Source: Candidatus Bathyarchaeota archaeon (GTDB lineage: Archaea > Thermoproteota > Bathyarchaeia > 40CM-2-53-6). Taken from it: 64,000 nucleotides of DNA. Every line of letters starts with the position of its first letter. The stretch's first letter is position 1. The position numbers and the translations under genes are program-made. The notes beneath the pieces are model-generated. The model was not told the DNA's origin and ran no database searches. It saw only the letters and a program-made list of their open reading frames with translations. Positions 13,245 to 42,931 of this stretch are shown piece by piece. Location of the stretch: NCBI GenBank assembly GCA_963706285.1, contig CAVPLU010000013.1, positions 104,762 through 168,761 on the forward strand, written 5' to 3'.

Positions 13245-13371
13245 GGGGTTGGCAGCTGTCCAAGTTTCGCGTGGCCTTGCGGAACACACTACTGCCTGAA
13301 TCGCCTGGGAGATTCACTTCCGTGTTCGGAATGGGAACGGGTCCTAGCTCCCAGCTATGGCCGCCAGCTCC
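13245..13371 (-). rRNA. rrf: 5S ribosomal RNA
   Basis: GGCGGCCATAGC...ACCCGTTCCCATTCCGAACACGGAAGTGAA...CTGCC with pairing termini. Confidence 0.95.
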
Positions 13372-15615: not shown

Positions 15616-15836
15616 TGGTGGGGCCGAAGGGATTGTCATGGCGTGCCGCCATTTTGAACCCTCGACTTCCGCCGTTTTTCTTCGTCTACGGGTTTCTCCC
15701 GCGCTCCGGAAGATCGTCATCCCACATGGTCAGCAAACCCGTTGCATGCCAAAGGCTTCTGGAGCCCTTAACGGGGGTTGTCCTGTCGTCATCCCTGGCT
15801 AGATTCCGCCGAACCTTGATCATCGCCTACGGCCCC
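15616..15836 (-). tRNA. tRNA-Trp(CCA) with five introns
   Basis: Removing 15804-15826, 15768-15784, 15694-15758, 15667-15685 and 15633-15652 gives a 77-nt cloverleaf GGGGCCGTAGTCTAGCCAGGGATGACGACGGGCTCCAGACCCGTAGGTCGAGGGTTCAAATCCCTTCGGCCCCACCA. Confidence 0.92.
15694..15758 (-). ncRNA. Box C/D guide in tRNA-Trp 37/38 intron
   Basis: ACGGGTTT-G-CTGA is complementary to AAACCCGT of the precursor (N+5 rule points to C39). ATGACGA box followed by CTTCCGGAGC, a near-complement of GCTCCAGAAG. Confidence 0.75.
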
Positions 15837-16037
15837 ACTGGACGACGACGCTCTGGCCCCACCGAGCTAGACTCGCACGCGAACAACATATTTAATGTTT
15901 CACACAGAGCCGCGTTCTTGCGGCAATCCAACTCTAGACGCCCGACAAGAAAAGCCATCGACCTTCGATGACTGCCTTGTGAAGAACAGGCTCGTAATCA
16001 GTTAGTTGCGACCGAGGGCCTCAGTCAAAGCGTAGAC

Positions 16038-42635: not shown

Positions 42636-42773
42636 GAGATCTTCGACATGACAACCGTATTCGGACGTAAATGCGTTCTTGCGCGCCTCACTTGTCAACT
42701 CGGACAGTTTCCGTCGGCAAAGTCTTTTAGATGACTCGGTCTCGATACAGATCTTGTGGTGCCGGGAACACCT

Positions 42774-42931
42774 GCCGGGATATGAGTGATAGTCTCGCAT
42801 CCCGAAGGCCGAGTGGATTAACGACCCATGGTGGTCGGTCTATAGGCGCAGGCCTTGAGTCCGCAAAATGCCGGTCTGGAGAGCCTGTGGCCCTTTGGGC
42901 CTCGGGGGTTCGAATCCCTCTCCCGGCGCCA
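42774..42931 (+). tRNA. tRNA-Ser(TGA) with three introns
   Basis: Removing 42782-42806 (8/9), 42821-42843 (21/22) and 42860-42881 (37/38) gives an 88-nt cloverleaf with long variable arm, G73 and CCA. Confidence 0.9.

Follow-up and report, generated by a model that had tools for sequence, protein, structure and literature searches.

How a splicing endonuclease finds a bulge-helix-bulge (BHB) motif that is made of acceptor-stem bases, and how heavily fragmented tRNAs fold, are the questions raised by a tRNA-Trp(CCA) gene on the minus strand of a 64 kb stretch of contig CAVPLU010000013.1 from a Candidatus Bathyarchaeota archaeon (the whole 64,000-nucleotide stretch that was analysed is called the window below). 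The gene starts with G1 at 15836, has an encoded 3′ end ...CGGCCCCACCA finishing at 15616, and is divided by five introns into six exons, with the first intron placed between tRNA positions 10 and 11 (10/11). A conserved, gene-specific element in the leader, here termed the acceptor decoy, would be a simple answer to both questions. With somewhat better than even confidence, we favour the reading that the leader of this pre-tRNA-Trp is a cis-acting acceptor decoy, which would permit an alternative fold for the splicing of 5′-proximal introns.

A possible surrogate acceptor strand in the tRNA-Trp leader

The elements of the leader and its promoter are as follows:

15855–15863, minus strand: acceptor decoy GGTGGGGCC, whose GGGGCC copies G1–C6 and whose GGT can pair with A73-C74-C75 (from the sequence, the 9-mer count, the relatives and folding)
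15837–15854, minus strand: leader spacer, in which GTCGTCGTCC (15849–15840) is antisense to GGGATGACGAC of exon 2 (15795–15785) (from the minimum free energy (MFE) structure and duplex energy)
15889–15895, minus strand: TATA-like TTAAATA with AAACA before it, 25 nt upstream of the GGT (from the sequence)

The decoy reads GGT at 15863–15861 and GGGGCC at 15860–15855, and the gene's own GGGGCC (G1–C6) lies at 15836–31, with the two copies 24 nt apart, as the original prediction had described them. The whole 9-mer GGTGGGGCC is the exact complement of GGCCCCACC at the 3′ end of the tRNA (C67–C72, A73, C74, C75), which bears out the perfect complementarity claimed earlier, and in the window it is unique to the leader and its own 3′ end: only two occurrences were counted on both strands, one in the leader and the other, as the reverse complement, at the 3′ end of the same gene (15617–15625, plus strand). 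The expected number was 0.23 per window, and two occurrences were reached in 1 of 100 shuffles.

Transcription in archaea starts about 23 nt downstream of the TATA box. The TATA-like TTAAATA, which had been placed one base away at 15888–15894, is present at 15895–15889, and because of this spacing the transcription start site is predicted about 23 nt after it, 0–5 nt before the decoy. The sequence AAACATTA[AT]ATA is kept at the identical 25-nt distance in all seven own-genus loci, while in the intron-bearing loci generally the TATA element stands about 19–25 nt before the decoy, and in the intron-less loci about 23–28 nt before G1. The spacer between the decoy and G1 may contribute a second pairing, with the D-loop/D-stem part of exon 2, as this duplex has an energy of −18.9 kcal/mol against a shuffled mean of −8.8 and none of 300 shuffles was as low. 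As the pairing was significant (p ≤ 0.05) in just 13 of 22 Trp loci, the antisense match to the D-arm is lineage-specific and not universal. Neither this match nor the number of introns had figured in the original prediction.

Decoys accompany acceptor-proximal introns in three tRNA families

The original prediction expected such leaders to co-occur with acceptor-proximal introns, and this was supported in the own genome, in a distant one, and in the Trp, Arg and Ser families across about 60 relatives, with the exception of six Ser loci. Among 30 Trp loci, a GGGG[CT][CT] element was located 11–25 nt before G1 in all 22 that have the 10/11 intron, and in two of the eight that do not. Loci L015 and L016, which have no 10/11 intron and carry a D-loop intron, hold a degenerate GGAGTC or GGAGCC, and the four Trp loci without any D-arm intron have no leader element. 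The decoy variants GGGGTC, GGGGTT and GGGGCT all keep their pairing with GGCCCC through G-U, and the spacers are fully diverged and cannot be aligned between families, while the decoy stays.

The same pattern was obtained for tRNA-Arg(CCG), in which all 12 loci with a 9/10 intron carry a decoy 11–14 nt upstream and none of the 12 without the intron does, four further loci that could not be parsed lying outside these counts. The Arg decoys are copies of their own acceptor, reading CGGGCGG(G), TGGGCGGG or GGGCGGG. Family f10 repeats the pattern on a small scale in Trp and Arg alike, with intron and decoy both present in the genera g16 and g18 and both absent from the genus g14.

In tRNA-Ser(UGA), the decoy was found in 9 of 15 loci with an 8/9 intron and in none of nine without (five unparsed loci are outside these counts), and it occurs in all eight own-genus loci as (T)GGTGCCGGGA, a stretch of 10–11 nt that extends over the CCA. 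One of these Ser genes is in the window itself, and its leader contains a second decoy:

42757–42767, plus strand: decoy TGGTGCCGGGA (11 nt, covering the CCA), a G-U-tolerant complement of TCCCGGCGCCA (from the leader scan and the relatives)

Here TCCCGGCGCCA is the 3′ end of a tRNA-Ser(UGA)-like gene at 42774–42931 (plus strand) with an intron at 8/9. A TATA-like CTTTTAGA is also seen about 25 nt upstream of this Ser decoy (decoy and gene together occupying 42757–42931, plus strand). In both families the pairing continues past the copied bases to N73 and the CCA, as GGT:ACC in Trp and as TGGT:GCCA in Ser, and it is therefore not explained by a plain duplication of the 5′ strand.

Other leaders of the genome that match their own acceptor stems

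A finder based on T-arm and acceptor complementarity, which requires a TTCRA T-loop and seven of seven acceptor pairs and is hence incomplete, gave at least 36 distinct tRNA candidates in the own genome (G000). Seven of the 36 have a leader in which 7 nt or more are complementary to the 3′ strand of the gene itself plus N73, and six of these seven break before position 13. Under the unedited rule for early introns, the decoy was found in 6 of 12 early-intron tRNAs and 1 of 24 others (p = 0.003; all p-values here are descriptive only). An earlier D-arm classifier, which merged D-loop with early introns, showed no association (p = 0.2–0.7), and the tRNAs of this genome with D-loop, anticodon or T-loop introns are mostly without a decoy. 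When leaders were swapped between tRNAs, a match of at least 7 nt occurred in 5.6% of pairs.

The leaders that match their own acceptors in G000 do so with different sequences, namely GGGGCC, GCCGGGA, GGGCGGG, GCCGGGG, GGGGCTG and GGGCCC. In the distant AT-rich genome G051, a match of 7 nt or more was obtained for a single tRNA out of the 26 parsed, one with an early intron; the Trp locus of that genome (L023) has the decoy. Both genomes together hold seven different acceptor sequences with a matching leader, so that the leader does covary with the acceptor stem, as had been anticipated, the covariation being between paralogues.

In G000, no more than 16–17 places score above the threshold of the Rfam tRNA model, against the at least 36 candidates, and ARAGORN (introns allowed) together with the Rfam tRNA model misses or mis-calls most multi-intron genes; the tRNA-Cys(GCA) at C12:81727–81828 of G000, for example, is called a tRNA-Val by ARAGORN. 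Many tRNAs of this lineage will be missing from standard annotation, and the decoy could serve as a gene-finder signature for those that both programs miss in these genomes.

A tRNA-Trp gene in six exons

The intron boundaries were set by alignment with 29 homologues of the locus in about 60 related genomes, taking invariant blocks against variable inserts, and the comparison places the introns (23, 17, 65, 19 and 20 nt) at 10/11, 28/29, 37/38, 45/46 and in the T-loop:

15827–15836, minus strand: exon 1, tRNA positions 1–10 (GGGGCCGTAG) (from the ARAGORN fold of the spliced product and the BHB alignment)
15804–15826, minus strand: intron 1 (10/11, 23 nt), whose GCGG can pair with C5–U8 as the BHB central helix (from the BHB alignment)
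15785–15803, minus strand: exon 2, positions 11–28, holding a C-box-like ATGACGA at 15792–15786 (from the spliced product; C-box from the sequence)
15768–15784, minus strand: intron 2 (28/29, 17 nt), with a BHB central helix that uses G23–G26 (from the BHB alignment)
15759–15767, minus strand: exon 3, positions 29–37, with the anticodon CCA inside (from the spliced product)
15694–15758, minus strand: intron 3 (37/38, 65 nt), with C/D-box-like elements (by eye)
15686–15693, minus strand: exon 4, positions 38–45 (ACCCGTAG) (from the spliced product)
15667–15685, minus strand: intron 4 (45/46, 19 nt), with flanks like those of intron 1, CCGTAG before it and GCGGAA at its 3′ end (from the BHB alignment)
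15654–15666, minus strand: exon 5, position 46 to the middle of the T-loop (from the spliced product)
15634–15653, minus strand: intron 5 (T-loop, 20 nt), with a cut site that is ambiguous inside an A run (from the spliced product)
15616–15633, minus strand: exon 6, comprising the 3′ side of the T-loop/T-stem, the 3′ acceptor strand CGGCCCC, A73 and the encoded CCA, with GGCCCCACC (15625–15617) as the decoy target (from the sequence, the spliced product and the 9-mer count)

Excision of the five introns leaves a 77-nt product that ARAGORN reads as a perfect tRNA-Trp(cca), a cloverleaf with the anticodon CCA, A73 and an encoded CCA; run with bacterial settings over the whole 64 kb window, the same program called no tRNA. 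The 28/29, 37/38 and 45/46 introns are common to all 30 Trp loci, the 10/11 intron is missing in eight of them, and the T-loop intron is missing in L025 and L026. As the sections consulted of two papers give three as the largest number of introns in an archaeal tRNA gene (PMC8450103; PMC3293823), this locus with its five stands above the maximum given in that literature.

The original prediction held that the 10/11 BHB needs acceptor-strand bases 5–8 (CCGT), and the relatives agree with it without exception: C5C6G7U8 makes four of four pairs with the intron sequence RCGG in all 22 intron-bearing loci, forming the central helix. The bulges read AG before the first cut with one base after it, and two bases before the second cut with a T after it (AG/N and NN/T), in 22 of 22, so that two 3-nt bulges flank a 4-bp helix throughout. 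The inner helix was seen in 21 of the 22 and covaries, with nine different closing triplet pairs, while the outer flanking helix is weak; in the MFE structure of L003 it consists of the leader 3′ end and G1–G3 paired with exon 2. At the other sites, the central helix has at least three of four pairs in 30 of 30 loci (28/29) and four of four in 27 of 27 (45/46), and the three small non-canonical introns thus keep the BHB geometry while the inner helix covaries. Because the 10/11 BHB uses C5–U8, it competes with the acceptor stem. In Trp, Ser and Arg, the central helix consists of acceptor bases 3–6, 4–7 or 5–8 with the four intron bases that directly precede the 3′ bulge, a use that was counted for Trp and read from the sequences for Ser and Arg.

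The genome also encodes the enzymes that such processing would involve. Two genes with an EndA domain (PF01974, 87.9 and 44.8 bits) have open frames of 200 and 181 aa, which would fit two different subunits of a heterotetrameric (alpha-beta)2 splicing endonuclease. An RNase P RNA is present with 183.7 bits.

Predicted folds with and without the leader

Partition functions were calculated for 19 Trp precursors that have the 10/11 intron. In the presence of the leader, its pairing with the 3′ strand has a probability of 0.69–1.00 and the acceptor stem ≤0.01 in all 19. When the leader was cut off, the BHB central helix had a probability of 0.0 in all 19, and with the leader it reached 0.48–1.0 in ten. 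In G000, the addition of the leader lowered the acceptor probability from 1.0 to 0.0–0.04 in four of six decoy tRNAs, and most other tRNAs of that genome retain the acceptor stem with the leader added, with some noisy exceptions.

Several results weigh against a splicing role of the leader and are gathered here. The original prediction had supposed that the leader sequesters the 3′ strand and thereby frees the 5′ strand for the BHB; in the predicted folds the first part stands, as the leader helix replaces the acceptor stem in 19 of 19 precursors, and the second does so in part, since the BHB helix has a probability of ≤0.17 in 9 of the 19, including the window's own gene with 0.08. All energies refer to 37 °C and the leader starts were arbitrary. 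Two Trp loci without the 10/11 intron, L008 and L009, have the decoy, both with a D-loop intron. The decoy is not obligatory, because six Ser loci (L048, L049, L053–L055 and L057, of the genera g2 and g3) have the 8/9 intron without it; there the intron makes a longer hairpin of its own and the MFE structure retains the acceptor stem, which is possibly a different way to present the splice sites. One G000 tRNA with a break after position 10 (C4+155572) has only an imperfect element, and G051 has one further early-break tRNA without the element. An initiator-like tRNA (A1:U72) at C4:264371 (plus strand) of G000 has an 8-nt leader complement without an obvious early intron; it keeps its acceptor stem in the fold (0.97), and of the 29 tRNAs that lack an early intron no other departs from the pattern.

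The statistics call for similar care. The hand-corrected classes of G000, with six decoys in seven early-intron tRNAs against one in 29 others (p = 2e-5), rest on a reclassification made by hand after the data had been seen, the G10 criterion having misflagged five tRNAs with C10 or other non-G10 D-stems. Since the relatives are not independent, the Fisher values overstate significance. The exon partners of the decoy are invariant inside one tRNA family, and covariation is seen among paralogous tRNAs only. Three RNA-library contigs (95–99% identity), from runs among six RNA runs that share 18–26% of sampled window words, span only 15644–15808, with no joints, no starts and none over the leader.

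A model for decoy-assisted splicing

We infer that the element is transcribed and acts on cleavage in the following order. The decoy would open the transcript or follow its first few bases, and there, as a copy of acceptor bases 1–6 with a partner for A73-C74-C75, it would pair with the 3′ acceptor strand. The true 5′ strand would then lose its normal partner, so that C5–U8 could join the 3′ part of the 10/11 intron in the 4-bp central helix of a BHB, to be cut by the splicing endonuclease. In the genus of the window, the spacer may in addition pair with the D-loop/D-stem of exon 2 and close off a domain that runs from exon 1 through intron 1 into exon 2. Once splicing is over, the true acceptor stem could form along with the D-arm and displace the decoy, and RNase P would then take off the leader.

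Extended to the whole archaeal order, the proposal is about evenly balanced in our view: wherever an intron falls at 8/9–10/11, the 5′ end of the transcript would encode a stand-in for the 5′ strand that keeps hold of the 3′ end with its CCA, joined in some genera by a D-arm antisense, and this class of acceptor-decoy leaders would work as a built-in RNA chaperone through folding, splicing, strand exchange and RNase P cleavage. If this is true, acceptor-decoy leaders are what lets tRNA genes break into as many as six exons, and pre-tRNA leaders, which are commonly taken as disposable, would gain a new function.

Alternative explanations

The alternative that survives best, though we consider it unlikely, is that the leader protects or gates the ends of the precursor: the leader and the 3′ end would form a panhandle, selected chiefly because it masks both the CCA and the site for RNase P in the unspliced, misfolded precursor and so blocks RNase P, exonucleases and aminoacylation, and BHB formation would not depend on it. 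The original prediction, too, had held that the leader may delay end-maturation or charging until splicing is done. The pairing does cover N73 and the CCA, the decoy sits at the predicted 5′ terminus, nine of the 19 Trp loci lose the acceptor stem with the leader without a high BHB probability, and the six decoy-less Ser loci presumably splice nonetheless. What end protection leaves unexplained is the tie to introns at 8/9–10/11, given that the G000 tRNAs with introns elsewhere (D-loop, anticodon, T-loop) are mostly without a decoy. The two readings are compatible, and they are not separable on present data.

Rather less probable is a neutral by-product, in which the decoy would be the relic of a DNA event that made the 5′-proximal intron (for instance, a stretch was duplicated locally or a leaderless gene was converted) and would have no function at the RNA level. 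Such an origin would fit the direct repeat of the gene's first 6–7 bases, the joint appearance of intron and decoy, and the reading of some decoys as GGGGCCGAAGA, close to exon 1; moreover, the distance from TATA to GGGGCC with the intron equals that from TATA to G1 without it, as if the decoy were the old gene start. Several observations speak against a relic. At least five families have kept the element over a complete divergence of the spacers, it changes in the ways that G-U pairing tolerates, its complementarity runs upstream of the repeat to N73/CCA in Trp, Ser, Arg and others, and it arose at seven different tRNAs with spacers of 0 to 19 nt.

Very improbable is a leaderless transcript whose true 5′ exon would be the upstream copy, with the spacer and the proximal copy forming a sixth intron. 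The repeat would give the same mature sequence under both readings, and the start site is predicted at the decoy, but the spacers of L041, L025, L023, C12-91515 and the Ser gene are 0–6 nt and too short for a BHB hairpin, no MFE structure has a BHB at the leader, most decoys are without positions 7–10, and an RNase P RNA is present. Chance complementarity we regard as negligible, for although acceptor stems are G+C-rich and mutually similar, with the swapped leaders reaching 7 nt at the rate given above, the Trp, Arg, Ser and G051 surveys and the 9-mer count of the window all speak against it.

Three other candidates were rejected. A leader of the split-tRNA type is at odds with the MFE structures, none of which has a BHB at the leader–exon boundary, and with the spacers of 0–6 nt in several genes; a permuted tRNA does not fit an upstream element that is a 6–11 nt copy of the 5′ strand in front of a collinear gene; and an att-site repeat of an integrated element does not agree with a repeat of 6–7 nt in copies 0–25 nt apart, integrase genes not having been searched for.

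Other features of the locus

Within the tRNA-Trp gene, the introns at 10/11 and 45/46 (15804–15831 and 15667–15691, minus strand) agree in their exon flank, CCGTAG, as well as in their 3′ end, GCGGAA, as if an intron had been copied from one site of the gene to another with which it shares a 6-nt sequence. The gene also contains C/D-box-like elements: one ATGACGA, at 15792–15786, overlaps the 3′ strand of the D-stem in exon 2, and the second, at 15720–15714, is in the 37/38 intron. A putative guide AACGGGTTTG with CTGA at 15743–15730 (minus strand) faces AAACCCGT at positions 38–43, and another stretch, CTTCCGGAGC, lies opposite the anticodon loop with one mismatch; the box C/D motifs and the guide complementarity to exon 3 and exon 4 were all found by eye, and Rfam sR40 gives a weak match (14.8 bits, its gathering score being 50). 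One further element was located upstream of the promoter by a consensus scan:

15953–15973, minus strand: terminator-like hairpin with a T-run, upstream of the tRNA promoter, which probably ends the upstream gene

A 5S rRNA gene was detected at 13247–13368 (minus strand, 80.6 bits), 2.2 kb from the tRNA-Trp gene. No member of the archaeal AmoA family was detected in G000 or in five relatives, a negative that carries no weight, as the control genomes gave no match either. DNA contigs with 41–59% of the window words are from soil, wetland, peat and sediment metagenomes.

Comparison with known systems

In the anti-terminator/anti-antiterminator logic of attenuators and T-box leaders, a competing strand further upstream determines which of the incompatible helices forms. 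The decoy would share this logic, but it would act in tRNA maturation, and attenuators and T-boxes act on the transcription or translation of mRNA. In Haloferax and other Euryarchaeota, the intron of pre-tRNA-Trp contains a box C/D guide facing C34 and position 39; this concerns the same gene and the same 37/38 intron, though the intron instead of the leader, and in the present gene a C-box-like motif overlaps the D-stem.

The split and permuted tRNA precursors of Nanoarchaeum equitans, Caldivirga, Thermofilum pendens and Cyanidioschyzon merolae are closer, since the portions consulted of the papers on them describe the pairing of leader or trailer sequences (PMC4090602, PMC4033280, PMC3218864, PMC3728597). 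According to these portions, a flank that is not part of the tRNA pairs in the precursor and gives the endonuclease its substrate, as would be the case here; in those systems leader and trailer pair together, form the BHB and are cut off by the endonuclease. The decoy leader differs from them in its partner, which is the mature 3′ acceptor strand with the CCA, and as a mimic of the 5′ strand it stays apart from the BHB; its removal would presumably fall to RNase P.

Archaeal tRNAs with non-canonical introns share with the present gene a BHB that is built from exon bases, so that the mature fold must break; the displaced strand is given no dedicated partner in the sections of PMC8450103 consulted, and in this it differs from the strand held by a decoy leader. 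According to the same sections, tRNAscan-SE 2.0 includes another 60 nt of flanking sequence so that BHBs close to the tRNA ends can be located (PMC8450103), so flanks are known to matter, yet no decoy is described there. Synthetic RNase P riboswitch leaders, in which a designed 5′ leader switches pre-tRNA processing by alternative pairing, are reported in the consulted parts of PMC7897497 and PMC8925977 as artificial, ligand-driven and bacterial systems that sequester the leader instead of the 3′ acceptor strand and are unconnected with splicing.

For the pairing of a leader with the 3′ acceptor strand, no earlier account was found in the full-text literature searched, as far as the portions covered go (including PMC4390854 and PMC3241643); older intron surveys and supplements outside this search may hold a mention of it, or tRNAs with more than three introns. 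Set beside these systems, the decoy leader is best classed as a variation on a known theme, that of alternative pairing by a precursor flank in BHB-dependent processing.
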